A stretch of DNA of 64,000 bases from an uncultured Ruminococcus sp. (GTDB taxonomy: Bacteria > Bacillota > Clostridia > Oscillospirales > Acutalibacteraceae). The translations under genes and the position numbers were made by a program. The DNA lies in NCBI GenBank assembly GCA_902785425.1, contig CACZYP010000001.1, positions 1-64,000 on the forward strand, written 5' to 3'. Below are positions 5,212-54,925 of this stretch, piece by piece; position 1 is the first letter of the stretch; each line of letters starts with the position of its first letter. A model generated the notes under the pieces. That model ran no database searches and was not told the DNA's origin. It worked only from the letters and a program-made list of their open reading frames with translations.

Positions 5212-6072
5212 GAACCTCGCCTGCGGCGAGGTTCTTAAATTGAAAATGGAAAATTGAAAATGGAAAATTGAAAATGGAAAATTGCAGAGTCGCTGCGCTC
5301 CTGATTTTATATTGGTGTTTTCAAGCCGAATAATTATCACTCGGCGGCGAGTGAAGTATGGATTTATGATGACTAATACAAATTCACCTCGCCCAAGGCG
5401 AGGTTCTTAAATTGAAAATGGAAAATTGAAAATGGAAAATTGCGGAGTCGCTGCGCTCCTGATTTTATATTGGTGTTTTCAAGCCGAATAATTATCACTC
5501 GGCGGCGAGTGAAGTATGGATTTATGATGACTAATACAAATCCAACTCGCCGAAGGAGAGGTTCTTAAATTGAAAATGGAAAATTGAAAATGGAAAATTG
5601 CGGAGTCGCTGCGCTCCTGATTTTATATTGGTGTTTTCAAACCGAATGATTATCACTCGGCGGCGAGTGAAGTGTGGATTTATGATGACTAATACAAATC
5701 CAACTCGCCTGCGGCGAGGTCCTTAAATTGAAAATGGAAAATTGAAAATGGAAAATTGCGGAGTCGCTGCGCTCCTGATTTTATATTGGTGTTTTCAAAC
5801 CGAATAATTATCACTCGGCGGCGAGTGAAGTGTGGATTTATGATGACTAATACAAATCCGACTCGCCGAAGGAGAGGTTCTTAAATTGAAAATGGAAAAT
5901 TGAAAATGGAAAATTGCAGAGTCGCTGCGCTCCTGATTTTATATTGGTGTTTTCAAACCGAATAATTATCACTCGGCAGCGAGTGAAGTATGGATTTATG
6001 ATGACTAATACAAATCCAACTCGGCGAAGCCGAGTTCCATAATTTTCCATTTTCCATTTTCAATTTTCCATT
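5212..6072. repeat. Head-to-tail tandem array of the family A element, about 5.4 copies with a 158 bp period. The first unit carries an extra 14-bp GAAAATGGAAAATT. The array ends with an inverted heptamer block aattttccattttccattttcaattttcc.
   Basis: Unit starts fall at 5229, 5401, 5559, 5717 and 5875. Each unit contains the hairpins CCTCGCC-tgcg-GGCGAGG and TCACTCG-gcg-GCGAGTGA plus the core ttgcggagtcgctgcgctcctgatttta. Confidence 0.95.
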
Positions 6073-28298: not shown

Positions 28299-28424
28299 AA
28301 TGGAAAATGGAAAATTGCGGAAGCACTTCGTGCTTGTTTTATTAACCTTGTACTATAAAAACAGGAGCGAAGCGACTCCGCAATTGTCCATTATCAATGG
28401 TCAACTGTCAATTGATAGTTGATT
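28299..28424. repeat. Complete small family A element of 126 bp. The left end is GGAAAAT-type plus hairpin aagcac-ttc-gtgctt. The right end is an inverted GACAATT-type plus core gcggagtcgcttcgctcctg.
   Basis: It is directly visible. Confidence 0.85.
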
Positions 28425-42088: not shown

Positions 42089-43933
42089 TCAGTCAACGTC
42101 CTTAAAATCTGCGTCGTAAACGTTGCCGCCGTCTTCTGCTGCTGCGCCTGCTGCACCGGGAGCGCCTGCGGGCTGTGCGTCGTTAGCCTGAGCTGCTGCT
42201 GCGCCTGCCTGATAGAGCTTTGTGGAAACGCCCTGAACTGTCTTTTCGAGGTCTTCTCTTGCAGCCTTGATCTTGTCGATATCATCGGACTTGATAGCGT
42301 CTCTTACGTTAGCTGCCTTTGTCTCCATCTCTGTCTTATCGGAAGCGTCGATCTTGTCGCCGTTCTCCTTGATGAGCTTTTCTGCAGCGTAAGCCATGTT
42401 CTCTGCTGCGTTCTTCTCGTCAACAGTCTCTCTGCGCTTCTTGTCTTCTGCTGCGTACTTCTCAGCCTCTGCGACAGCCTTGTCGATGTCGTCCTTGCTC
42501 ATGTGTGTGTCGGACTTGATAGTAACCTTCTGCTCCTTGCCTGTGCCGAGATCCTTAGCGGATACGTTAACGATACCGTTGGAGTCGATGTCGAATGTTA
42601 CTTCGATCTGCGGGATTCCTCTCGGAGCCGGAGCAATACCGGAGAGAATGAAGTCGCCGAGCTTCTTGTTGTCTCTTGCGAACTCACGCTCACCCTGGAG
42701 CACGTTAATCTCAACCTGCGGCTGATTGTCTGCTGCTGTGGAGAAGATCTGGCTCTTCTTTGTCGGGATAGTTGTATTTCTCTCGATGATCTTTGTCATG
42801 ATGCCGCCCATTGTCTCAACGCCGAGTGAAAGCGGAGTTACGTCGAGAAGGAGAAGACCCTCAACTTCACCGCCGAGAACGCCTGCCTGGATAGCTGCGC
42901 CGATAGCAACGCACTCATCGGGGTTGATGCCCTTGAACGGCTCTTTGCCGATGAAGTTCTTTACAGCGTTGATAACTGCGGGGATTCTTGAAGAACCGCC
43001 TACCATGAGGACTTTGTCGATGTCGTTGATGGAAAGCTTACTGTCGTTGAGTGCGCTCTTAACGGGACCCATCGTCTTCTCAACGAGGTCAGCTGTAAGC
43101 TCGTCAAACTTAGCTCTTGTGAGTGTGAGGTCAAGGTGCATCGGGCCGTTTTCGTCCTGCCAGATGAACGGAATGTTGATAGATGTGCTTGTAACGCCGG
43201 AAAGGTCGATTTTTGCCTTCTCTGCGGACTCTTTAAGGCGCTGCATAGTTGTCTTGTCCTTGCTGAGGTCAACGCCGTTCTCTTTCTTGAACTCTGCGAT
43301 CATCCAGTCGATGATCCTCTGGTCGAAGTCGTCGCCGCCGAGACGGTTGTTACCTGCTGTTGCAAGAACTTCCTGAACGCCGTCGCCCATCTCGATGATA
43401 GATACGTCGAACGTACCGCCGCCGAGGTCATATACCATTACCTTCTGATCGTCTTCCTTGTCGATACCGTAGGAAAGAGCTGCTGCCGTAGGCTCGTTGA
43501 TGATTCTCTTTACATCAAGGCCTGCGATCTGACCTGCGTTCTTTGTAGCCTGACGCTGTGAGTCTGTGAAGTATGCGGGAACTGTGATAACAGCCTGAGT
43601 AACAGTCTCGCCGAGGTAAGCCTCTGCGTCTGCCTTGAGCTTCTGAAGGATCATTGCGGAGATCTGCTCCGGAGTGTAGCTCTTGTCGTCGATAGTTACT
43701 TTGTAGCTTGTGCCCATCTCTCTTTTGATGGAGCTTACCGTCTTTGCGGGGTTGGAAACTGCCTGACGCTTAGCGATCTGACCTACAAGGCGCTCGCCTG
43801 TCTTGGAAAAGCCTACTACGGACGGAGTTGTTCTTGCACCCTCTGCGTTAGCGATAACGACCGGCTCGCCGCCTTCGATTACTGCTACGCATGAATTTGT
43901 TGTACCAAGATCTATACCTATTGTCTTTGCCAT
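42089..43933 (-). CDS. dnaK: Molecular chaperone DnaK.
   Basis: It has Hsp70 signatures ([16 protein letters not shown]). Confidence 0.97.
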
Positions 43934-44013
43934 GATAAATTTCTCCTTTTTCTTTAATCGTATTGTTTATATTATTTTTAATTTGTTTTCATGTATCGAA
44001 TTTCAATCTTCAA

Positions 44014-44616
44014 TTAGTTGACTGTCTGAACCATTGCGTGGCGAATGATCTTATCGCCGACTTTGTAGCCTTTCTGATAGACCATAGCGATCGTATCGGA
44101 TTCAAGCTCGTCATTGTCAACGCTTGAGATAGCATTGTGGAACTCCGGATCAAACGGCTCGCCGACCTCACCGAAGCTCTCGATGTTGAGCTTCTCGAAT
44201 GACTTTGCAAGCTGCGAAGCGATCATTTCAAGACCCTTGCGGAACTCTTCGGGAGCGTTCTTTGAAGCTTCCAAAGCTCTGTCGATATTGTCTGCGATCG
44301 GAATGATCTCGTTTATCGTATCGGAAACGGCGTTTGCATAAATGCCTGCCTTTTCACGCTCGGAGCGTGCTCTGAAATTTGCGTACTCGGCAGCTGTTCT
44401 CAGAAGCTTATCCTTTTCTGCGGCAAGTGCTTTTTCAAGCTCAGCCGTTTTGTCGTCGGCTTTTTCTTCCGCTTTCTCTTCTGTTTTCTCTTCTGCTTTC
44501 TCTTCTGCGGGAGCTTCTTTAACTTCCGCTTCCTCGGCAGCTTCTTCTGCTTTTTCCTCTGCTGCCTCGGCTGTCTTTACTTCTTCTTCCGTTTTCTTTT
44601 CTTTGTTCTTACCCAT
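44014..44616 (-). CDS. grpE: Nucleotide exchange factor GrpE.
   Basis: It has a GrpE C-terminal domain, and its N-terminus is rich in Glu, Lys and Ala. Confidence 0.9.
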   Translation of the reverse strand: MGKNKEKKTEEEVKTAEAAEEKAEEAAEEAEVKEAPAEEKAEEKTEEKAEEKADDKTAELEKALAAEKDKLLRTAAEYANFRARSEREKAGIYANAVSDTINEIIPIADNIDRALEASKNAPEEFRKGLEMIASQLAKSFEKLNIESFGEVGEPFDPEFHNAISSVDNDELESDTIAMVYQKGYKVGDKIIRHAMVQTVN

Positions 44617-44632
44617 CTATATCGATCCTTTC

Positions 44633-45661
44633 CTATTCGATCATCAGTATCTCTCTGAGCAGCCTGCCGGAGCATTCCGCAACGTATTGAAGCACCGCCG
44701 AAGCGTAAGCGTAGTCATATCTCATCGGAACTATCGCCGTTATGAATCCGCCGCTCGTCGGTTCGATCGTGTACGGTTCTGCTATGAAGCTGTGGTCTGC
44801 AAGAGCTTCGTTTCCCGTTTCGCTGCCTATCAGGATATTCTTTCCCGTGCGCAGCCTCAGCAAAAGTGTTTCGAGCTGTTCGTCCGAATGAAGAAGCTGA
44901 GTTAATGCTCTCATCCCCAAAACATCATCTTCACGGTCAAGCAGCGCCGTTCTTCCCGTTACCGTCATGCTGAATCCGCCGACCTCTCTGCAGGCGTCCA
45001 TTATGGCTGAAAGAACGCTCGGAACGAGCATTGCGATCTCACCTAAGCTGACAGCCTGAGTCTGAATGTAAGCCGGAGTTACGCTTTTAACGGGTAAACC
45101 TTCCATTTCTCGGTTGAATATCGTTTCATATATATTCACGATATCGGGCGTTATTACATAGTCGCACTTGAACAGCTTCGTTTTTATTAACCCCGTAGAC
45201 GTTATCAGAACCACCATGCACGTCTGTCTGCCTGTCTGAACGAAGCGCAGCGTTCGTATCCTGGCGTTTTCCGAAAACGGTGTAGTGGTCACACAGACCG
45301 TTTCAAGAAGCTCCGAGGCGACCTCGCCTGCTGCGGATAAAAGCTTTTCGGGATCGTCGCCCTTTGAACTCAGCTCGTTTAAGATCAGCGCTTTAGTGCT
45401 GCCCGAGAGCGTTTTTTTGTCCATAAGATGTTCAACGTAATACCGAAAGCCGTCTTCCGAAGGCTGTCTGCCTGCCGAGGTGTGAGGCTGTGTGAGAAGA
45501 CCCATCTCCGAAAGCTCCGCCATTTCATTTCGTATCGTTGCGGAAGAAACGGGAAAGCCGAGAGTGTTTACAAGCAGTTTTGAGCCAACAGGCTCGCCGC
45601 TTTTTACATATTCTTCGACGATCGCCTTGAGGATCTTGCGTTTCCTCTCTTTCGTCTGCAT
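44633..45661 (-). CDS. hrcA: Heat-inducible transcription repressor HrcA.
   Basis: It has an HrcA winged-helix N-terminus (ILKAIVEEYV), and AGGTGAG serves as its RBS. Confidence 0.9.
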   Translation of the reverse strand: MQTKERKRKILKAIVEEYVKSGEPVGSKLLVNTLGFPVSSATIRNEMAELSEMGLLTQPHTSAGRQPSEDGFRYYVEHLMDKKTLSGSTKALILNELSSKGDDPEKLLSAAGEVASELLETVCVTTTPFSENARIRTLRFVQTGRQTCMVVLITSTGLIKTKLFKCDYVITPDIVNIYETIFNREMEGLPVKSVTPAYIQTQAVSLGEIAMLVPSVLSAIMDACREVGGFSMTVTGRTALLDREDDVLGMRALTQLLHSDEQLETLLLRLRTGKNILIGSETGNEALADHSFIAEPYTIEPTSGGFITAIVPMRYDYAYASAVLQYVAECSGRLLREILMIE

Positions 45662-45681
45662 CTGCTCACCTCGCTTTTGAA

Positions 45682-45708
45682 TTAGCACTCTGTTGCGCTG
45701 AGTGCTAA
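45682..45708. promoter_or_regulatory. CIRCE operator with a perfect TTAGCACTC-N9-GAGTGCTAA, placed between the promoter and the hrcA start.
   Basis: It reads ttagcactctgttgcgctgagtgctaa. Confidence 0.92.
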
Positions 45709-47582: not shown

Positions 47583-47693
47583 CGTTCTGCATTTAATGAA
47601 AATCTATTGCAAATAAAAATTTTTGTGCTATAATAAATTTCGTACTGTATTGTATCCGGCGCTGATGCCGGAATGATAACAAGGAGGATAAAA

Positions 47694-48365
47694 ATGAATA
47701 GTAAGAAGAAAGATATCCGTTGGATGGTAAGTGTTGCACTTATGGCGGCGATCATCGTGCTTTTGGCTAATACGCCTCTCGGTATGATACAGCTGCCTGT
47801 GATCAAGGCGACAACCGTACACATTCCCGTGATCATCGGCGCAGTGCTTCTCGGACCTCTTGCAGGTGCGATCCTCGGCGCAACGTTCGGCATCTGCTCC
47901 ATCGTGAGCAATACGATGACGCCTACACTGCTGTCGTTCGCATTTTCTCCGTTCCTCAGCACAACAGGTCCCGTAGGAGCTTTAAAGGCTCTGTGGATCG
48001 CTGTAGGCTGCCGTATCCTTATCGGTGTTGCAGCAGGCTGGCTGTGGATCCTTCTCAAAAAGGTAAAGGTCCCTGCTCCCGTAGGTCTTGCAATAACAGG
48101 CTTTGCAGGCTCTATGGTGAACACAATTTGCGTTATGGGAAGCATATACTTCCTGTTCGCTCAGCAGTATGCAGAGGCTAAGGAAGTAGCTCTTTCAGCT
48201 GTTTTCGGCCTTGTAATGACTACTGTTACGGCGTCGGGTATCCCCGAGGCGATAGCTGCTGCTGTTCTTGTGGACGTTATCGGTTTTGCACTTCTTAAGG
48301 CAATGCCTCAGATAATGCCCGAAAAGAAGAGCGACAGCGAGATCGTTCAGGCAGAAGCGAAATAA
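47694..48365 (+). CDS. ECF transporter S component, likely for pantothenate given the adjacent coaX.
   Basis: It is a 6-TM small integral membrane protein with an RBS AAGGAGG. Confidence 0.6.
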   Translation: MNSKKKDIRWMVSVALMAAIIVLLANTPLGMIQLPVIKATTVHIPVIIGAVLLGPLAGAILGATFGICSIVSNTMTPTLLSFAFSPFLSTTGPVGALKALWIAVGCRILIGVAAGWLWILLKKVKVPAPVGLAITGFAGSMVNTICVMGSIYFLFAQQYAEAKEVALSAVFGLVMTTVTASGIPEAIAAAVLVDVIGFALLKAMPQIMPEKKSDSEIVQAEAK

Positions 48366-48382
48366 AACGGGAGCATTCGGAT

Positions 48383-49150
48383 ATGGTCATAGCGGTTGAT
48401 ATAGGAAATTCAAACATAGTGATAGGCTGCTTTGAAGATGAAAAGGTTCTTTTTATCGAGCGCCTTTCGACAAATCAGCAGTGTACGTCGCTTGAATATG
48501 TTATCTCTGTCAAGAATATCATGGAGATAAACGGCATTGAGCTGTCTGCGATAGAGGGCTGCATAATCTCGTCCGTTGTGCCGAGCGTTACCGAAACGGT
48601 AAAGACGGCGCTCGAAAGGCTTACTCATACAAAAGTAATGATCGTAGGCCCCGGTATAAAGACGGGTCTAAAGATAATGCTCGATAATCCCGTTCAGCTC
48701 GGAAGCGACAGAGTTGCAGACGCTGTGGCGGCAGTGAACCTTTATCCCACGCCGCTTATTATAATAGATATGGGAACAGCTACGACCGTTTCCGTTATCG
48801 ACAAGGATAAGAACTACCTCGGCGGAATGATAATCCCCGGTCTTCGTGTGTCGCTCGATTCGCTTACGATGAGAACGTCGCAGCTTCCCAAGATAGGCAT
48901 CGAGCCGCCGAAAAGAGTTATCGGCGCCAATACTATAGACTGTATGAAGAGCGGTATCGTTTACTATTCCGCAGCAGGCATAGACGGCGTTATCGACCGT
49001 ATCGAAGAAACTCTTCAAAGCAAGTGCACCGTAGTTTCAACAGGCGGCCTTGCAAACAAGATCATACCCCACTGCAGGCGTGAGATCACAATTGACGAAC
49101 AGCTTTTGCTAAAGGGTCTGATGATAATTTACAATAAGAATAAAAGATAA
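48383..49150 (+). CDS. coaX: Type III pantothenate kinase.
   Basis: Its N-terminus reads MVIAVDIGNSNIV, with a second motif GGMIIPG. Confidence 0.92.
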   Translation: MVIAVDIGNSNIVIGCFEDEKVLFIERLSTNQQCTSLEYVISVKNIMEINGIELSAIEGCIISSVVPSVTETVKTALERLTHTKVMIVGPGIKTGLKIMLDNPVQLGSDRVADAVAAVNLYPTPLIIIDMGTATTVSVIDKDKNYLGGMIIPGLRVSLDSLTMRTSQLPKIGIEPPKRVIGANTIDCMKSGIVYYSAAGIDGVIDRIEETLQSKCTVVSTGGLANKIIPHCRREITIDEQLLLKGLMIIYNKNKR

Positions 49151-49583
49151 TTCATCATAAAACAAAACAGTACAGATAAATATATTATTTCAAAGAAAAA
49201 GCGCTTGTGATATCCGAAATCATGAGCGCTTTGTTGTCATTTTTAGGGCGGTTTATTGCCGGTTGAGCAATATGACAAAATCGCACAACGCTTATTGGTC
49301 AAAATGACAGATAAAGTTACAATGCACATTAATGGACAAAAACGGTAAAATGTGTACAAAATCAATTAAAATGCTATTACAGAAATAACATTGTTTTTAT
49401 TTTTTGAAAGATATAGCCCCGTGAAAATAACAGCGAGATTACCTGTGGTGAAACTTTTGTCATATTTAGCAATATGCTTTTATTATTGCACTTTTTATGT
49501 TATAATTAACCGTATCTAAATTAGTATGGTGTATTATGCAAAGTGCGTACAGGTGAAATCCTGGGGCACAAGATGGGGTTATT

Positions 49584-50360
49584 TTGTTTATGGAAAAACA
49601 CACTGAAGAAAAAAACAGACGCCAGAGCGATGTTATCTTTGGCAGAAATCCTGTTTTTGAGGCCGTCAAAAGCGGCAGACCGATCGAATCGATCCTTATA
49701 GCGGCAGGCTCAAAGGGAGGCACCGTTTCGGTGATACTCGCCAAGGCAAAGCAGCAGGGGATCGTAATCAAAGAAGTAAATCCGAAAAAGCTCGACTTTA
49801 TGTGCGGCAGCACGGCGCATCAGGGCATAGCGGCTATCGCTGCGGTGAAAGAGTATTCCACCGTTGAGGATATCCTTGACTATGCGAATGAAAAGGGCGA
49901 AGATCCTTTCATCATTATCCTTGATGAGCTTGAAGATCCGCACAATCTCGGCGCAATTATCAGAACGGCGGAATGCGTCGGCGCTCACGGTGTTATCGTT
50001 TCACAGCGCAGAAGCGCAGGCCTTACGTTCGCCGCAGGCAAAGCGTCTGCAGGTGCTGTGGAATATCAGCGTGTTGCGAGAGTCGTCAATATGGCGAATA
50101 CGATCGAGCAGCTTAAGAAAAAAGGCGTGTGGGTATATGCCGCCGATATGGACGGCTCGCTTTATACGTCTACCGATCTGACAGGCCCTGTGGCTATCGT
50201 CATCGGCAATGAGGGCAAAGGCGTAAGTCCTCTCGTTGCGAAAAAGTGCGATGCAGTCATTTCGCTGCCTATGGTCGGGAAGATCAATTCACTGAATGCA
50301 TCAGTTGCGGCAGGCGTGCTTGCCTACGAGGTGTTCAGACAAAGATCTTCAAAAAAATAA
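49584..50360 (+). CDS. rlmB: 23S rRNA (guanosine-2'-O)-methyltransferase RlmB (SpoU/TrmH family).
   Basis: It has SpoU_sub_bind and SpoU methylase motifs (IILDELEDPHNLGAIIRTAE, GNEGKGVS). The start is either TTG at 49584 or ATG at 49590. Confidence 0.88.
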   Translation: MFMEKHTEEKNRRQSDVIFGRNPVFEAVKSGRPIESILIAAGSKGGTVSVILAKAKQQGIVIKEVNPKKLDFMCGSTAHQGIAAIAAVKEYSTVEDILDYANEKGEDPFIIILDELEDPHNLGAIIRTAECVGAHGVIVSQRRSAGLTFAAGKASAGAVEYQRVARVVNMANTIEQLKKKGVWVYAADMDGSLYTSTDLTGPVAIVIGNEGKGVSPLVAKKCDAVISLPMVGKINSLNASVAAGVLAYEVFRQRSSKK

Positions 50361-50412
50361 ATTGAAATTAAGATAAGTTTACGTAATAAACGTTATAAAA
50401 ATAACGAAAGGG

Positions 50413-53400
50413 GTGAAGTGTGTGTCTGATCGTGACGATATTGATGTAGTTAAAACAGCGGAGAAAAACTCCGCCGACGATACAATACGTCAGAATTACC
50501 CCATAGATGATACCGAAAACGGTACGAAAAAGAAGCTCGGTTTTCTCAACATGGTAAAAAAGATGCTTTCGACGGACGAAGATCCCGAAGCCGAAAGCAG
50601 TGAGTCCGTAAGCGAGGACGACAATATGTTCGGCTCTCTTATCGGGCGTCTGAAAAAGCCGTCGGAGAAAAGCGGGGAAGCACCATCTTCCGAGAGCTTC
50701 GATTCCGATACACCAAACGATAAACAGACATTCGATAATATAGCGGCAGAAAACAGCAAGCCAAAGCAAGCTGAAAAGCCGCAGCCCGAAAAGGAGAACG
50801 ACTCCGCCGAAGAGGAAGAGCTTCTTATGATAGATGCTTTCTTAAGCGGCGAGGAATATACTCCGGAGAAAAAAGAAGAACCCGACTTGAGCGGCGCTTT
50901 TGAAGAGGAAGAGGTCGTATTCGTTGATTTTGACACCGACGATGATGCGCAAGAGGTGAGCGGTGATGATACGCCTGAAAGCAAGGACGAAACTGAACCT
51001 GCTGAAACAAGCGGCGAGGCTGACTCTGCCGCTGAGGATAGTGTGCTCACTGAAAAGACCCGGCTCGCCGAACAGACTGATAATAGCGAGGGTGAAGCTG
51101 CCGAAGTCTCTGATGAAGAAAAATCAGATCCCGAAGCTGCGCTCGAAAAACAAGTCGAGAGTGAAGATATTGAAAACGCTGATGCTTCCGAAAAGCCGAA
51201 CGATGCTGATAGCAGTAAGAGTGACGGGGAAGCGGCAGAAATAGAAGAGGACGAAGAGTTCGTTCTTGAAGAAGAAAAGCCCTTCGACGAGGAAGACGAT
51301 CTTTCGGCGCACGCAGAGGAATCCGATGATTTCAGCGACCTTTCCACAATTTTTGAAGACGATGAGGAAAAGTCGGAGAAGAAAGAAAAAGAGCCCGATA
51401 CGAAGGAATACGAAGCCGAGCCGATCGACATAGACAACGGCGAAAGCGGCGAAGATCCCGAAAGCGATATAGCCGAGGACGATTCCGACAAAGCAGAAGA
51501 AACCGAAAAATCCGAAGAAACATCGGATAATAAGGCAGAGGATAAGACGGAAGAAAAAACCGAGGACAAGACCGAAGAGAAGTCCGATGAAAAATCCGAG
51601 GAGAGATCCGAAGAGCCTTCTGCCGAAAAAGAAGAAAAAGAGGAAGAACAAGGCAAGTCCGAGGGAAAAACTGAAGAAAAGCCCGAAGACAAGCCGCAGG
51701 AAAAGCTTGAAGAGCCTGCTTCCGAAGAGGCAAAGACCGATAATGAATCGGCTGACGATAAGGCGTCGGAAGAAAAAGAGCCGGAGAAGAATCCCGCAAA
51801 CGGAGCAAAGGTCTTTTTCGGACGTGTGAAGTCTAAGCTTGCAGAGCTTTGGAACGCCAAGAACGAGCAGGAAAAGGCTGCCGATAATAATACGGAAGAC
51901 CCGTTCGTATCGGAGCTTATTTCCGACACAAATACGGAAGAAAAAACCGAAACGGCTTCCGAAGATACTGCGCAGGCAAATTCCGAGGAGAAATCGGAAG
52001 AAAAGCCTGCGGAAGCTTCCGAAGAGAAGCCTTCCGAGGAAAAGCCGGAAGAAAACACCGATAAAAAACCGGAAGAGCAGCAAAAAGCCGAAGCCGATGA
52101 GCAGAAGCTGTCGGAAGGTTCAGCTGTAGACGCACCGTCTGAGAAAACTCAAAAGGATACGGAAACAGACGCTTCCGAAGAAACAAAGTCCGAAGCAGCG
52201 ACCGAAAACGACGTCGCCGAGGACGAAAAGGACGATAAGACAGAAGAAGATCAGACGGAGCGCAAAGTTCCGATGATCTCCGTTATCAAGAACGAAAACG
52301 TTACAAAGACGGAGTTTGACGAAGAAAAGCTCAGAGGCAGCCTTAACGTTATCGAACGCAAGGCTACCGATGTTCTTACAGACGAGCAGCGCCGTGAGAT
52401 CGAGCAGAGCAAGCGTGAGCTTGAAAAAGTGAGCGAGCTTGAAGAAAAAGCAACCGCCGAGCGTGAGGAGCTTCGCCGTGAGAAAGAGCTTCGCAAGGCT
52501 AAAGAAGCGGAAGCTGCAAGGTCGATCGTCACAGAGCTTGATGTTGGCGGATATCGTCCCGAAGACAGGAAAAACTCCATCAAGTTCCCGACAGGTAAGT
52601 TCAGCGATTCGGTAAGAGCCGAATATGAATGTATCGTCAACTACAACCGCATGATAAGCGTTTCGACCGACGAAAACCTCATCAAAGAGATCAAAAAGGT
52701 CGAAGCCGAGAGCAGCACTCCCGCAGAGCAGCCGAAAAAAGAAGCTGAGGCTGTTGCCGAGTCGGGAGAAAGCAGTGCAAACGAGATACTTAAAGAAGCC
52801 CGTGATTACGAAAGAAATCACGATAAGGTAGAAAGCCTGGGCAACAAGCTCGATTATCAGGATAAGAAAAATCCCGAGCCTGTTGAGTACAGAACTGAAA
52901 CGGATGACGCCGAGGTAAAGAGTTATCTGACTAACAGACGTAAATCCGATTTCCTTACGTTCGGCATCACGGCAGGACTTACGGCCGCAGCGTTTATCTT
53001 CTCGCTGTTTGCAGCTAAGTTCACGGTAGGCGCAGGCACGTCTGCTGCTGCCGGTCCGCAGAGAATATTTGCGCTGATAAATCTTCTGCTGTACGCAGGC
53101 GCTGTATTCTTCTGCAAGGATATGATAATAAGCGGTCTTATGCCGCTCAAAAAGTTCAAGGCTACTCCCGACACGGGCGTTGCACTGGCGAGTGCGGCGG
53201 CGGCGCTGCAGTCTTTGCTTGCGCTCATAACGCCGAAGCCTTTCATGACGCAGGGACTTAACGTGTATACGCTTGTTGTTATGCTTGCACTTACACTGTT
53301 CACTGCGGGCAGATACTTAAATTCCGACAGAGCTTTGTCGAACTTCCGTTTCGTTTCCGATTCGGAGCAGAAATATGCAGGTAAGTTCTTTACCGACGCA

Positions 53401-54633
53401 AGAACTGTAGCAAAGCTTCTGAGCGGTACAAAGAACGAGAAAACAGAGTTCTCGTTCCAGAAGAAAACAGCATTTCTTTCTCACTTTGTGAGACTTTCCA
53501 ATGCCGAAGATCCCGGCGACAAGCTTGCCGCATCGTTCTCGCTTGCGGCTCTCATAGCAGCTGTATTCGCCGCATTGATCGCAGGCATTATGTCAAAAAG
53601 TTTCTTTGACGCAATATCGGTTATTTGCATCATGCTTTGCGCAGGCATACCGATAAGCTCAAGAACGCTCGGCTCATGGCCGCTGAGAAAGCTCGCAAAG
53701 CGTGCTCTTGTCAACAAGTCGATGGTTGTAGGTTATCCTGCAGTTGAGACGTTCTCCGAGAGCGCAGCTGTAATGATCGACGCCAAGGATCTTTATCCGG
53801 CAGGCTCGATCGAGATAACACGCTCCATCAAATATGACAGCATTCATTGGCAGAACGGCATATACGCTGCGGCAGCTGTTACACTCGCTGCAGGCGGAGC
53901 TGTTTCGGGCGTATTCGAGCAGCTTGTCAAGGATAACGGCCAGTTCAGCATACCTACCGCCGAGGGCGTAATGTATGAAGACAACAAGGGTCTTCTCGGC
54001 TGGGTAAACGGCGTACGTGTTCTTGTGGGCAACAGACAGCTTCTTCTGAGCCATGTCGTTCCGGTTGTTTCCGAGGGTCAGGACGATGAATATAAAGCAA
54101 ACGGCGACGAACCGCTTTATATCGCATACGGTCAGAAACTCGTTGCGGTAATCACGGTTCGATACTCGGCAAGCCGACGTGTTTCCGATACGCTCAAGCG
54201 CATGGAAGCAAGCGGAATGAGCCTGCTTGTCCGCACAACGGACGCAAATATCACAGCCGAGCGCATCTCGAAAGATTTCGGCGTGAGAAATCAGAACATA
54301 AAAGTTCTTGAACAAAAGGTATTTAACTACATTCGTGACGAGATGGTCGGCAAGGAGCGCACATCGCCTGCGTATATCGCAACAAAGGGCGGCGTTACTT
54401 CGTTCGGGCTTGCGGTCAGCGAATGCGTTCAGACGAAGCGTGATATCTCGCTCTCAACCGCAGTGGAGATAGCAGGCACGCTTATCAAGATGCTCATAAT
54501 CTGTGCGATCGTTCTCTTTGCGGGAATACATCAGATCGGCGCAGTACAGCTCTTCATCTTCTCGCTTATGTGGGCAGCCGTAGTTCTCTGCGCTCCCGCA
54601 CTTGTTCAGAAGGTACAGGGAGCGAAACACTGA
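50413..54633 (+). CDS. Giant two-part protein of 1406 aa. The N-terminus is an approximately 820-aa polyacidic low-complexity region, and the C-terminus is a membrane domain resembling a catalytically degenerate P1B-type (heavy-metal) P-type ATPase.
   Basis: The tail aligns by eye to CopA-type signatures, but every catalytic motif is altered. CPC in the TM6 equivalent becomes CAG (MLCAGIPISS), DKTGT becomes DAKDL (VETFSESAAVMIDAKDLY), TGDN becomes TDAN (LLVRTTDANITAERISKDFGV), and the A-domain is shortened with no TGES. The alternative GTG start at 50422 follows AAAGGGG. Confidence 0.7.
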   Translation: MKCVSDRDDIDVVKTAEKNSADDTIRQNYPIDDTENGTKKKLGFLNMVKKMLSTDEDPEAESSESVSEDDNMFGSLIGRLKKPSEKSGEAPSSESFDSDTPNDKQTFDNIAAENSKPKQAEKPQPEKENDSAEEEELLMIDAFLSGEEYTPEKKEEPDLSGAFEEEEVVFVDFDTDDDAQEVSGDDTPESKDETEPAETSGEADSAAEDSVLTEKTRLAEQTDNSEGEAAEVSDEEKSDPEAALEKQVESEDIENADASEKPNDADSSKSDGEAAEIEEDEEFVLEEEKPFDEEDDLSAHAEESDDFSDLSTIFEDDEEKSEKKEKEPDTKEYEAEPIDIDNGESGEDPESDIAEDDSDKAEETEKSEETSDNKAEDKTEEKTEDKTEEKSDEKSEERSEEPSAEKEEKEEEQGKSEGKTEEKPEDKPQEKLEEPASEEAKTDNESADDKASEEKEPEKNPANGAKVFFGRVKSKLAELWNAKNEQEKAADNNTEDPFVSELISDTNTEEKTETASEDTAQANSEEKSEEKPAEASEEKPSEEKPEENTDKKPEEQQKAEADEQKLSEGSAVDAPSEKTQKDTETDASEETKSEAATENDVAEDEKDDKTEEDQTERKVPMISVIKNENVTKTEFDEEKLRGSLNVIERKATDVLTDEQRREIEQSKRELEKVSELEEKATAEREELRREKELRKAKEAEAARSIVTELDVGGYRPEDRKNSIKFPTGKFSDSVRAEYECIVNYNRMISVSTDENLIKEIKKVEAESSTPAEQPKKEAEAVAESGESSANEILKEARDYERNHDKVESLGNKLDYQDKKNPEPVEYRTETDDAEVKSYLTNRRKSDFLTFGITAGLTAAAFIFSLFAAKFTVGAGTSAAAGPQRIFALINLLLYAGAVFFCKDMIISGLMPLKKFKATPDTGVALASAAAALQSLLALITPKPFMTQGLNVYTLVVMLALTLFTAGRYLNSDRALSNFRFVSDSEQKYAGKFFTDARTVAKLLSGTKNEKTEFSFQKKTAFLSHFVRLSNAEDPGDKLAASFSLAALIAAVFAALIAGIMSKSFFDAISVICIMLCAGIPISSRTLGSWPLRKLAKRALVNKSMVVGYPAVETFSESAAVMIDAKDLYPAGSIEITRSIKYDSIHWQNGIYAAAAVTLAAGGAVSGVFEQLVKDNGQFSIPTAEGVMYEDNKGLLGWVNGVRVLVGNRQLLLSHVVPVVSEGQDDEYKANGDEPLYIAYGQKLVAVITVRYSASRRVSDTLKRMEASGMSLLVRTTDANITAERISKDFGVRNQNIKVLEQKVFNYIRDEMVGKERTSPAYIATKGGVTSFGLAVSECVQTKRDISLSTAVEIAGTLIKMLIICAIVLFAGIHQIGAVQLFIFSLMWAAVVLCAPALVQKVQGAKH

Positions 54634-54652
54634 CAAAAAGTGCGGCGTTATA

Positions 54653-54683
54653 TAAAAGTGCGGTCTTATGACCGCACTTTTAT
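54653..54683 (+). terminator. Terminator after the giant gene.
   Basis: The hairpin is aagtgcggtc-ttat-gaccgcactt, followed by ttatc. Confidence 0.6.
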
Positions 54684-54685
54684 CA

Positions 54686-54925
54686 ATGGAAAATGGAAAA
54701 TTGAAAATTGAAAATTGCGGAGTCGCTGCGCTCCTGATTTTATATCAGTGGTTCCTTAGTTTATTCAGACTAAATAGTTATCTCACGGCAGTGAATAAAG
54801 TATGGTATTAGGAGGACTAATACAGATTCAACTTTCCACACTTCACATTCCACATTAAAAAACAGGAGCTAAGCGACTCCGAAATTGTCCATTATCAATT
54901 GTCAACTGTCAATTGCCAATGGTAC
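54686..54925. repeat. Long compound family A element of about 240 bp. It includes the internal module ttattcagactaaatagttatctcacggcagtgaataaagtatgg and a second inverted end module.
   Basis: It is visible, and the same long form occurs at 60888-61073 and 63742-64000. Confidence 0.85.

Follow-up and report, generated by a model that had tools for sequence, protein, structure and literature searches.

A conserved family of probably inactive P1B-type ATPase derivatives with disordered N-terminal tails, encoded next to rlmB in Oscillospirales

The window analyzed in this work is a stretch of 64,000 nucleotides (nt) at the beginning of contig CACZYP010000001.1 (assembly GCA_902785425.1) of an uncultured Ruminococcus sp. 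It contains an open reading frame (ORF) located at positions 50413..54633 of the forward strand, which starts with GTG and encodes a protein of 1406 amino acids (aa); the same coordinates had been given in an initial annotation made from the sequence alone. The product is very probably a conserved, catalytically dead derivative of P1B-type ATPases, in which the membrane core is preceded by a long disordered tail. The gene had been placed between rlmB and rpe, and this position was confirmed. The rlmB gene, encoding the 23S rRNA Gm2251 2'-O-methyltransferase (49584..50360, +; TIGR00186, 240.6 bits, cutoff 160; PF08032 and PF00588), ends 52 nt upstream, and rpe is located downstream.

The ribosome-binding site GAAAGGGG (50406..50413, +), read directly from the sequence, abuts the GTG at 50413 and lies 8 nt upstream of a second GTG at 50422. 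The latter (MSDRDD..., 1403 aa) may be an alternative translation start, since it has the better spacing from the ribosome-binding site and fits the 'MSDE' N-termini of many homologues. The start at 50413 is possible as well, because the sequence 'MKCVS' found at this upstream start is kept among close relatives in the tail alignment. An intrinsic terminator hairpin with a perfect 14-bp stem (inverted repeat I2; −23.1 kcal/mol, z −6.4) is located at 54652..54683 (+). The ribosome-binding site and the terminator ascribed to the gene by the initial annotation are both present, but the gene is probably not an autonomous unit. A consensus scan limited to sigma-70-type promoters found a promoter-like site, TTGTCA-18-TATTAT, 5' of rlmB (49457-49486) and none in the 52-nt gap, so an autonomous promoter was rejected. 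In view of this, rlmB and the gene studied here probably form one conserved unit that is read as a single transcript.

Hydropathy analysis of the C-terminal part of the protein revealed eight hydrophobic segments arranged as 4 + 2 + 2 (four in aa 847–970, two in aa 1035–1087 and two in aa 1345–1402), and the region of aa 820–1406 has the ordinary composition of a membrane protein. The Pfam search with the full protein gave no match at E ≤ 1, including E1-E2_ATPase and Hydrolase (PF00122/PF00702), and that with the core gave no significant match. Five other members of the protein family described below also had no significant Pfam match, the best being PF00702 in one of them (E = 0.012, below its cutoff). 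Among NCBIfam models, similarity was sub-threshold: CopA PRK10671 scored 47 bits (E 1e-12; cutoff 1316) and TIGR01525 28.8 bits (cutoff 346). Comparison with the PDB sequences using phmmer detected LpCopA of Legionella (3rfu, 1.2e-9). When the family profile was used, the best E-value was 1.1e-19, and all 11 of the 11 matches belonged to Cu-type P1B pumps.

The AlphaFold2 model of aa 641–1406 has a mean predicted local distance difference test (pLDDT) value of 74, with values of ~80–93 in the membrane and cytoplasmic core. According to the Foldseek analysis of this model, the top 15 matches are all P1B pumps (4bbj, E = 5.9e-21 over 665 columns, 14% identity), and KdpB comes next. KdpB (P1A, KdpFABC) is catalytically intact, has seven transmembrane helices and is encoded together with kdpA and kdpC, whereas the locus studied here encodes no such partners. 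The model shows the architecture of the P-type ATPase fold with its membrane (M), phosphorylation (P) and nucleotide-binding (N) domains. The eight-helix topology of P1B pumps, MA and MB included, is seen in the hydropathy pattern, in the AlphaFold2 helices and in the aligned MB–M1 motif, and the whole bundle is modelled with high confidence in both a long and a short member of the family. Helices MA, MB, M1 and M2 (aa 847–970; 52951..53322, +) were identified by hydropathy and as AlphaFold2 helices with pLDDT of 85–94. The P1B-like MB–M1 'platform' GLMPLKKFKATPDTG (aa 908–922; 53134-53178, +) includes NSDTG, which aligns under CopA NMDS. Helices M3 and M4 (aa 1035–1087) correspond to 53515..53673 (+), and M5 and M6 (~aa 1345–1402), followed by a short C-terminus, to 54445..54630 (+; hydropathy and AlphaFold2). 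The P1B-like helix layout with recognizable remnants noticed in the initial annotation is borne out by these data, and the C-terminal core is an extremely diverged P1B-type ATPase fold.

For the analysis of catalytic motifs, a genuine CopA-type pump from the same search (P0049) and the LpCopA sequence were used as references. The former phosphorylation site DAKDLYPAGS (aa 1123–1132; 53779..53808, +) aligns with DKTGTxTxG, the DKTGT motif being replaced by D1123-A-K-D-L. The hinge RTTDAN (aa 1274–1279; 54232..54249, +) aligns with LTGDN; T1275 and D1277 are kept, and the Gly is lost. Both replacements (DKTGT by DAKDL and TGDN by TDAN) had been read correctly in the initial annotation, as had the truncated actuator (A) domain and the unrecognizable GDGxNDxP motif. 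The A-domain remnant (aa 971–1034; 53323..53514, +) is ~55 aa shorter than that of CopA, and Y-A-G-K-F (aa 988–992) takes the place of TGES. The M2–M3 loop has ~64 aa against ~120 in CopA, its aligned residues read YAGKF / (L/V)SG with no Glu, and in the AlphaFold2 model it appears as a small hairpin with helices of low to moderate pLDDT. GDGxNDxP is deleted together with ~25–30 flanking residues, and ATKGG (aa 1323–1327; 54379..54393, +) is found at the junction. In the N-domain remnant (53890..54033, +), SEHPL is replaced by AGGAVS (aa 1160–1165) with loss of the His, and the GxG region reads YEDNKGLLGWVNGVRVLVGN (aa 1188–1207).

As for the metal-binding CPC motif of M4, the alignment gives I1079-P1080-I1081 (53647-53655, +), which contains no Cys. 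The reading 'CAG' proposed earlier proved to be one or two residues out of register and was rejected on the basis of the family core alignment; this correction does not affect the absence of metal-binding cysteines. Neither an intact DKTGT nor an intact CPC was seen in the window protein after correct alignment, and the search of the full protein for an N-terminal heavy-metal-associated (HMA, CxxC) domain gave no PF00403 match.

A still-active P-type pump with unconventional chemistry might be considered, as D1123 and the hinge residues T1275/D1277 are present and the automatic Joint Genome Institute (JGI) name of one relative is 'cation transport ATPase'. However, the protein lacks the Lys, Thr, Gly and Thr of DKTGT as well as TGES, GDGxNDxP and the Lys of motif III, the Asp column contains N, S, E, K or T in 37% of relatives, the TIGR01525 score is 29 bits against a cutoff of 346, and no Pfam match to E1-E2_ATPase or Hydrolase exists. 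Such activity is very improbable. Judged from its sequence, the protein passes none of the catalytic tests for P-type ATPases and reaches none of the curated thresholds, so that its annotation as a 'cation-transporting ATPase' is unwarranted.

Related proteins were collected by a profile search of 1.84 billion cluster representatives (50% identity clusters) at E ≤ 1e-30. At this threshold, 2052 clusters matched the profile, with lengths from ~650 to 1778 aa, and 640 further matches were found in an Oscillospiraceae branch, where clusters have up to 3846 members. A word-indexed search with the core yielded 47 close relatives of 850–1060 aa from Clostridia and Ruminococcus metagenome-assembled genomes (MAGs), all named 'hypothetical' and none with a Pfam domain. 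In a scan of one genome per species, a relative was encoded by at least 151 species genomes; the best 80 of these 151 all belong to Oscillospirales, and many come from rumen and gut. Carriers include Ruminococcus, Pseudoruminococcus massiliensis, Ruminococcoides intestinihominis, Acutalibacter and Acutalibacteraceae. As far as sampled, the family is confined to Oscillospirales. The closest relatives of the window protein, L035 and L013, are encoded by rumen MAGs and show 61–65% identity. A divergent branch with ~20% identity (P0048, P0212 and others) comprises proteins of Oscillospiraceae and Ruminococcaceae MAGs, in clusters with hundreds to thousands of members. Two contigs of MAG RUG11832 (L012 and L014) each encode a member truncated by the contig start (1231 and 1186 aa); the two could be paralogues or reflect strain heterogeneity in the bin.

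All source names are 'hypothetical protein', except for the one automatic JGI label mentioned above, and cluster look-ups returned no informative names. No Pfam or NCBIfam model covering the family was found, and a literature search for pseudo, inactive or uncharacterized bacterial P-type ATPases gave nothing relevant; a 2023 review of P-type ATPases contains no discussion of dead pumps (PMC10654040). This agrees with the earlier statement that no family with such an architecture had been described.

The state of the motifs across the family was assessed in a core-only alignment of 82 non-identical sequences. In the column of the phosphorylated Asp, D was found in 52 sequences, N in 18, S in five, E and K in three each and T in one. 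The Lys of DKTGT is replaced by A (64) or S (18) in 82/82, and the last Thr by Leu in 81/82. The Pro of CPC is kept in 76/82, and its flanks are I/V and V/F/I/M, never Cys, His or Ser. The His of SEHPL is absent in 82/82, and its Glu is replaced by G/N/K/D; the first Gly of GxG is kept in 41/82 and the second in 82/82. The Lys of motif III of the HAD superfamily is replaced by L/Y/N/F. In the hinge TxD, T is found in 79/82 and D in 80/82, the Gly being lost, and in place of GDGxNDxP there is an invariant T-(R/K)-G with no Asn or Asp. DKTGT was found at the site in none of 148 cluster representatives and in none of 120 proteins of the Oscillospiraceae branch, in which the site reads (V/L)-T-(D/E)-x-D-L-(F/Y)-P. 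A 'DKTG' string found once in P0058 was rejected as a retained motif, because it is located away from the motif site, which reads DAKEL.

Conserved non-catalytic residues occupy the former active site, namely, a nearly invariant L-(Y/F)-P-x-G after the Asp, a Tyr in place of the Asp of CopA 'AD' and L/Y/N/F instead of the Lys. The conserved core of the family further includes T-(R/K)-G, YED..G(L/V).G, the MB–M1 'platform' GL.PLKKFK.NSDTG, and the hinge Thr and Asp. The following family signature is proposed: (D/N/E/S)-(A/S)-x-(D/E/Q)-L-(Y/F)-P-x-G, (R/S)-T-x-D, T-(R/K)-G, YED..G(L/V).G, a disordered tail and rlmB upstream. The window protein has DAKDLYPAGS, RTTDAN, ATKGG, YEDNKGLLG, a disordered tail and rlmB at 52 nt. 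Intact ORFs of the family span 736–1681 aa with strong conservation of the core, which argues for selection. By this alignment, the pattern of conserved residues is that of a pseudo-enzyme under selection for structure and not that of a pump, and the dead state appears to be ancestral to the large conserved family.

The conserved residues of the membrane domain would also be compatible with a passive conductance or a ligand sensor ('transceptor'), that is, an ion or metal leak or uniport, or binding of a metal or lipid signalled via the tail. The M4 proline, which unwinds the ion-binding helix, is kept in 76/82, the MB–M1 platform and NxD motif are retained, several polar transmembrane residues are invariant, and the eight-helix bundle is modelled with high confidence. 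On the other hand, both Cys of CPC are aliphatic in 82/82, and the reference alignment reveals neither a counterpart of the M5/M6 ligand signatures of P1B pumps nor an evident conserved charged residue in mid-membrane. Conservation of Pro and Gly is expected equally from maintenance of the fold alone. A conductance or sensor is considered unlikely.

The N-terminal tail (aa 1–846; 50413..52950, +) appears as a disordered, polyacidic region of variable spacers and conserved islands according to its composition, AlphaFold2 modelling and alignment. The extreme acidity and low complexity reported earlier for the N-terminal 820 residues were fully reproduced: aa 1–820 contain 22% E, 11% K, 11% D and 10% S, 33% of the residues are acidic (269 D+E), and the net charge is −154. 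The densest acidic stretch is aa 100–460, with 41% D+E. The KTEEK-like repeats mentioned along with it were supported only in part; the sequence is of low complexity, but a clean KTEEK array was rejected, as the repeats in the tail DNA are short (9–18 nt) and imperfect. Most modelled tail residues have pLDDT <50 in a long and a short member; in the latter, a typical protein of 872 aa, this applies to residues 40–300, the N-terminal helix being excepted. The tail probably lies on the cytoplasmic side, in the place of the P1B metal-binding domains, as suggested by the P1B topology and by the K/R-rich flank RRKSD before TM-A.

Acidity of this degree is not a property of the whole family. In 70 complete loci, the pre-membrane region has 164–1114 aa (median 330), 12–34% acidic residues and a net charge of +15 to −189; in 149 cluster representatives, it has 115–1192 aa and a net charge of +21 to −194 (median −23). 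Family-wide, the proportion of acidic residues is 12–35%, with lineage-specific composition and repeats. Very acidic tails of 700–950 aa are found in the clade of the window protein (L008–L019, L035) and in a few others, and equally acidic ones (net −100 to −194) in its closest relatives and several cluster representatives; tails of other lineages are neutral and rich in K/E/N/S/P. Perfect or near-perfect peptide tandem repeats were detected, namely, EPVKQAVVEEKA in Pseudoruminococcus (L031/L040), EPPQQEYGEQSAYV in Acutalibacter intestini (L085) and AAPAAPEPTVK in L068. Their distribution indicates that repeat expansion in the tails has probably been recurrent and independent. The pairing of a dead core with a giant polyanionic domain, emphasized in the initial annotation, does not hold for the family, since the tail of ~830 aa with a net charge of ~−155 is typical of the rumen clade of the window protein and a few others. 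The emphasis should shift from a polyacidic domain to a variable disordered tail with conserved motifs.

Identity to close relatives, calculated per 50-aa block, is 10–60% in the tail and 58–82% in the core. Within the clade of the window protein, the tail aligns in frame; its spacers are 10–40% identical, and its conserved islands include GFLNMVKKMLSTDE, EEELLMIDAFLSGEEY, DEEFVLEEE.PFDE, FFGRVKSKLAELWNAK, TGKFSDSVRAEYECIVNY, a charged helix (aa 648–701) and the juxtamembrane segment. A frame-shifted, species-specific expansion, named in the initial annotation as a finding that would weaken the functional reading, does not fit this conservation of in-frame islands across species.

A decaying pseudogene or an ORF miscalled through low-complexity sequence is effectively refuted. 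The purine-rich, low-complexity coding strand does yield long spurious ORFs on the opposite strand: two antisense ORFs rich in Ser/Phe/Leu, 50496-52058 (−) and 51124-52083 (−), encoding 520 and 319 aa, lie opposite the acidic tail. These are by-products of the strand composition (AT skew up to 0.53) and not genes. The 4.2-kb frame of the gene itself is unbroken and has a ribosome-binding site and a terminator, the same architecture recurs in the at least 151 species, core identity to close relatives is 58–82%, and the tail islands are conserved.

Several of the islands in the window protein form recognizable motifs. Basic amphipathic motif 1, KLGFLNMVKKMLS (aa 41–53; 50533..50571, +), follows a recurrent pattern, and its hydrophobic moment is among the highest of the tail. 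Motif 2, MFGSLIGRLKK (aa 72–82; 50626..50658, +), was identified by alignment, pattern and hydrophobic moment. Motif 3, VFFGRVKSKLAELWNAK (aa 467–483; 51811..51861, +), is conserved in the close clade and in P0001/P0003/P0004, and a related 'FEKLFGKAK' is present in a clade of 850-aa proteins. In an otherwise strongly negative tail, the three copies are among its more amphipathic segments with positive charge. The 315 non-redundant tails contain 69 occurrences of the pattern [GS]-hydrophobic-hydrophobic-x-[RK]-hydrophobic-[KR], compared with 3.3 (maximum 9) in shuffled sequences, an enrichment of ~20-fold, with examples such as GIFGRIKKK and SIFDRIKKLM from many lineages.

In addition, the tail contains the acidic-hydrophobic island EEELLMIDAFLSGEEY (aa 134–149; 50812..50859, +), conserved in L035, L013, L008 and L019, and the island EEFVLEEEKPFDEE (aa 281–294; 51253..51294, +), identified in the tail alignment. 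The long charged helix (aa 648–701; 52354..52515, +) is predicted with moderate confidence (AlphaFold2 model residues 17–63, pLDDT ~75–85) and is conserved in the close clade. The motif IKFPTGKFSDSVRAEYECIVNY (aa 723–744; 52579..52644, +) is conserved across Ruminococcus and Acutalibacter branches, and the pattern G[KR]F[ST]..V...EY at this site occurs in diverse members. No support was obtained for the idea that (A/T)GKFS..V..EY in the tail complements the truncated A-domain or packs against the core, as its pLDDT is <50 in AlphaFold2 models of a long and a short member. Acidic-hydrophobic motifs near the N-terminus are seen in other branches too, their likeness to the EEELLMIDAFLSGEEY type being judged by eye. 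In P0048, P0198, P0204, P0212 and P0214, the sequence EEYSLEDI(M/L)xEFG(G)W is found ~20–40 residues from the start, with Pro/Glu-rich spacers after it, and may be a linear motif for the binding of a partner.

The composition of the tail in the clade of the window protein could suggest a membrane-held buffer of high capacity and low affinity for Ca2+/Mg2+ (or polyamines), with the dead pump as its anchor. The 269 D+E in 820 residues, the net charge of −154, the equally acidic tails of the closest relatives and the topological replacement of the P1B metal-binding domains by the tail would be consistent with this role. Nevertheless, acidity is not family-wide, the spacer sequence evolves fast, no EF-hand or other defined cation site was detected by Pfam, and the conserved tail elements are non-acidic motifs; the buffer explanation is improbable. 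Since the conserved part is a disordered tail with short linear motifs and not acidity, cation binding would be at most a clade-specific addition.

The most constant feature of the neighbourhood is rlmB. In 66 of 70 complete loci, the family gene is immediately preceded by a SpoU/RlmB gene on its own strand, at a distance of 3–80 nt in 57 of those 66; of the four loci without adjacent rlmB, three start too near a contig end for this to be judged, and L079 is the fourth exception. In the clade of P0046, the stop and start codons of the two genes overlap. In the distant Oscillospiraceae branch, rlmB is adjacent in 4/4 loci (three distinct proteins), 10–15 nt upstream; in these loci rpe is absent, the other neighbours differ, and FtsH is encoded upstream. 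The rpe gene is located 3' of the family gene in 72 of 87 loci. The pair of rlmB and the family gene is the sole neighbourhood feature common to every branch examined, even for proteins that are ~20% identical.

This linkage raises the possibility of coupling to RlmB and biogenesis of the large ribosomal subunit, in which the anchored tail, as a nucleic-acid mimic, would bind RlmB, basic ribosomal proteins or assembly intermediates and thereby localize or buffer them. Adjacency to rlmB is conserved in all branches examined, where other neighbours differ, the gaps are of a few to tens of nt with one stop/start overlap, and no internal promoter was detected. However, inherited gene order is inseparable from functional coupling here because all carriers belong to one order, and the adjacency may be inherited housekeeping gene order. 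The idea of an RNA mimic is weakened by the many non-acidic tails (net charge up to +21), and according to Pfam and NCBIfam, RlmB of the window is an ordinary 258-aa protein without an extra domain. Such coupling is doubtful. There is likewise only a small chance that a dead Cu-pump scaffold has been kept throughout the order for a non-transport function tied to RlmB, for example, tethering or regulating 50S maturation factors or basic/RNA-binding proteins at the membrane by means of the disordered, often polyanionic tail, whose amphipathic motifs would bind the membrane.

The preferred interpretation is that of a non-catalytic P1B-type ATPase acting as a membrane scaffold with a motif-bearing tail; its probability can be put at roughly 50%. 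Of the features of a Cu-type P1B pump, the protein retains the eight-helix membrane domain, the folds of the P- and N-domains and the proline in M4. By alignment, the phospho-Asp motif, the TGES loop, half of the A-domain, CPC, the adenine-binding His, the motif-III Lys and GDGxNDxP are lost. The initial proposal of a pseudo-enzyme on a P-type fold is supported by the P1B fold and topology and by the loss of catalytic motifs throughout the family. A protein of this kind would be unable to run the E1–E2 phospho-enzyme transport cycle, and its core could provide a stable polytopic anchor in the membrane or a platform for docking. Through its short linear motifs, the cytoplasmic tail would contact the membrane surface or cytoplasmic partners; these motifs include basic amphipathic helices resembling membrane-targeting sequences and acidic-hydrophobic motifs, and the low-complexity spacers would set reach and charge. 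In the rumen clade of the window protein, the spacers would have grown to a polyanion of ~830 aa. Possible additional effects of such a polyanion are low-affinity binding of cations, entropic exclusion or electrostatic repulsion by the anionic membrane.

Several observations weigh against this interpretation, and the scaffold or tether mechanism taken by itself, with its putative partners and localization, is tentative, with somewhat less than an even chance. AlphaFold2 gave no confident docking of the tail motifs on the core in a long or a short member. The Asp is still present in 52/82 sequences (63%), including the window protein, and the Asp of the TxD hinge is nearly invariant, so that the P-domain may have kept some function related to a ligand or to phosphate. 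Polar residues are conserved in M1/M2, namely, the Asp of NSDTG and one Gln and one Tyr that are invariant, and these could still line a pathway. The amphipathic pattern was defined after the data had been seen, and its enrichment is inflated accordingly. The motifs of the window protein presumably resemble the amphipathic membrane-targeting helices of MinD, FtsA and SepF.

Among known systems, Cu(I) P1B-1 pumps (CopA; LpCopA 3RFU/4BBJ, A. fulgidus CopA, ATP7B, HMA4) are the exclusive best PDB matches in both sequence and structure. The family shares with them the layout of MA, MB and M1–M6, the kinked MB 'platform' followed by NxD, the M4 proline, the Rossmann core of the P-domain with its TxD hinge and the N-domain fold. 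It differs in its identity of only ~13–14%, in the absence of catalytic and metal motifs from the window protein, in an A-domain shorter by ~55 aa and a P-domain shorter by ~25–30 aa, and in a disordered tail of 115–1192 aa with no HMA domains. The 'functionally uncharacterised P-type ATPase' (FUPA) families of TCDB (surveys of the Saier group) are bioinformatically defined prokaryotic P-type ATPases without known substrates, which as a rule have the signature motifs.

A conceptual precedent is provided by the P4-ATPase–guanylate cyclase chimeras (P4GC) found in alveolates and stramenopiles, which have kept a P-type module as a non-canonical part of a larger protein; its fold is preserved, but the Asp of DKTGT and the Glu of the A-domain are altered or lost in Tetrahymena, P4GC-beta, Cryptosporidium and gregarines (PMC13466520). 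Unlike the present family, P4GC belong to the eukaryotic P4 (flippase) lineage and are fused to a catalytic cyclase, the loss of motifs in them is partial and lineage-specific, and their relationship to P1B pumps is confined to membership of the same superfamily. A looser comparison is offered by the Pseudomonas PcrP/PA2803 subfamily, a bacterial HAD-superfamily fold reported to be non-catalytic (PMC12632274); its members are small soluble proteins and no P-type ATPases.

Pseudo-enzymes are well known among kinases, phosphatases and proteases, and P-type ATPases are among the best-studied membrane enzymes. The literature search yielded no report of dead P-type pumps that form a conserved family in bacteria, nor any published account of the present family, which by its sequence features seems to be a non-catalytic branch of P1B ATPases marked by a disordered tail and rlmB linkage. 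If this is true, it would be the first recognized bacterial family of pseudo-P-type ATPases, and an abundant one that includes very common gut Oscillospiraceae; an order-wide family of dead pumps would surprise specialists in P-type ATPases. A large family without models in dominant gut and rumen lineages (Ruminococcus, Acutalibacter, Oscillospiraceae) would represent a sizeable part of unannotated core biology. It would also provide a natural experiment on the P-type fold without its catalytic cycle, and it illustrates how extremely a disordered tail can expand in particular lineages while the membrane anchor that bears it is conserved. The strict linkage to rlmB offers a concrete lead that can be tested. 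Automatic 'cation transport ATPase' labels, such as that on the JGI record, would mislead reconstructions of metabolism and transport.

Several other features of the window were noted. Between the terminator of the gene and rpe, an intergenic element of ~232 nt (54684-54915) folds at −65 kcal/mol (z −5.4). It is bounded by a 58-nt inverted repeat, 79% complementary with arms 116 nt apart, formed by two copies of the AATTGCGGAGTCGCTGCGCTCCTG family. In homologous loci, the gap between the family gene and rpe is <50 nt in 43 of 72 (range 1–494), on which basis the element looks like an insertion of the miniature inverted-repeat transposable element (MITE) or repetitive extragenic palindromic (REP) type. 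The 24-mer AATTGCGGAGTCGCTGCGCTCCTG itself constitutes a dispersed repeat family, with 10 copies in the window against 0 expected. Five of them lie within a tandem array at 5251-6034 (+), which consists of 5.0 copies of a 158-nt unit with 95% identity, each unit beginning with AAATTGAAAATGGA-type heptad repeats; single copies are located near 28362 (−), 45851 (+), 54713 (+), 54863 (−) and 63771 (+). Rfam and tRNA scans of the window found nothing. At 42089-45688 (−), dnaK (PF00012) and hrcA (PF01628) form part of a heat-shock operon, in which the 200-aa ORF 44014-44616 between them is presumably grpE. Upstream of rlmB, at 47673-49150 (+), the S-component of an energy-coupling factor (ECF) transporter (PF12822) is encoded directly 5' of the type III pantothenate kinase gene coaX (PF03309). 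NCBIfam returned no name for this S-component, and its pairing with coaX suggests that it is specific for pantothenate.

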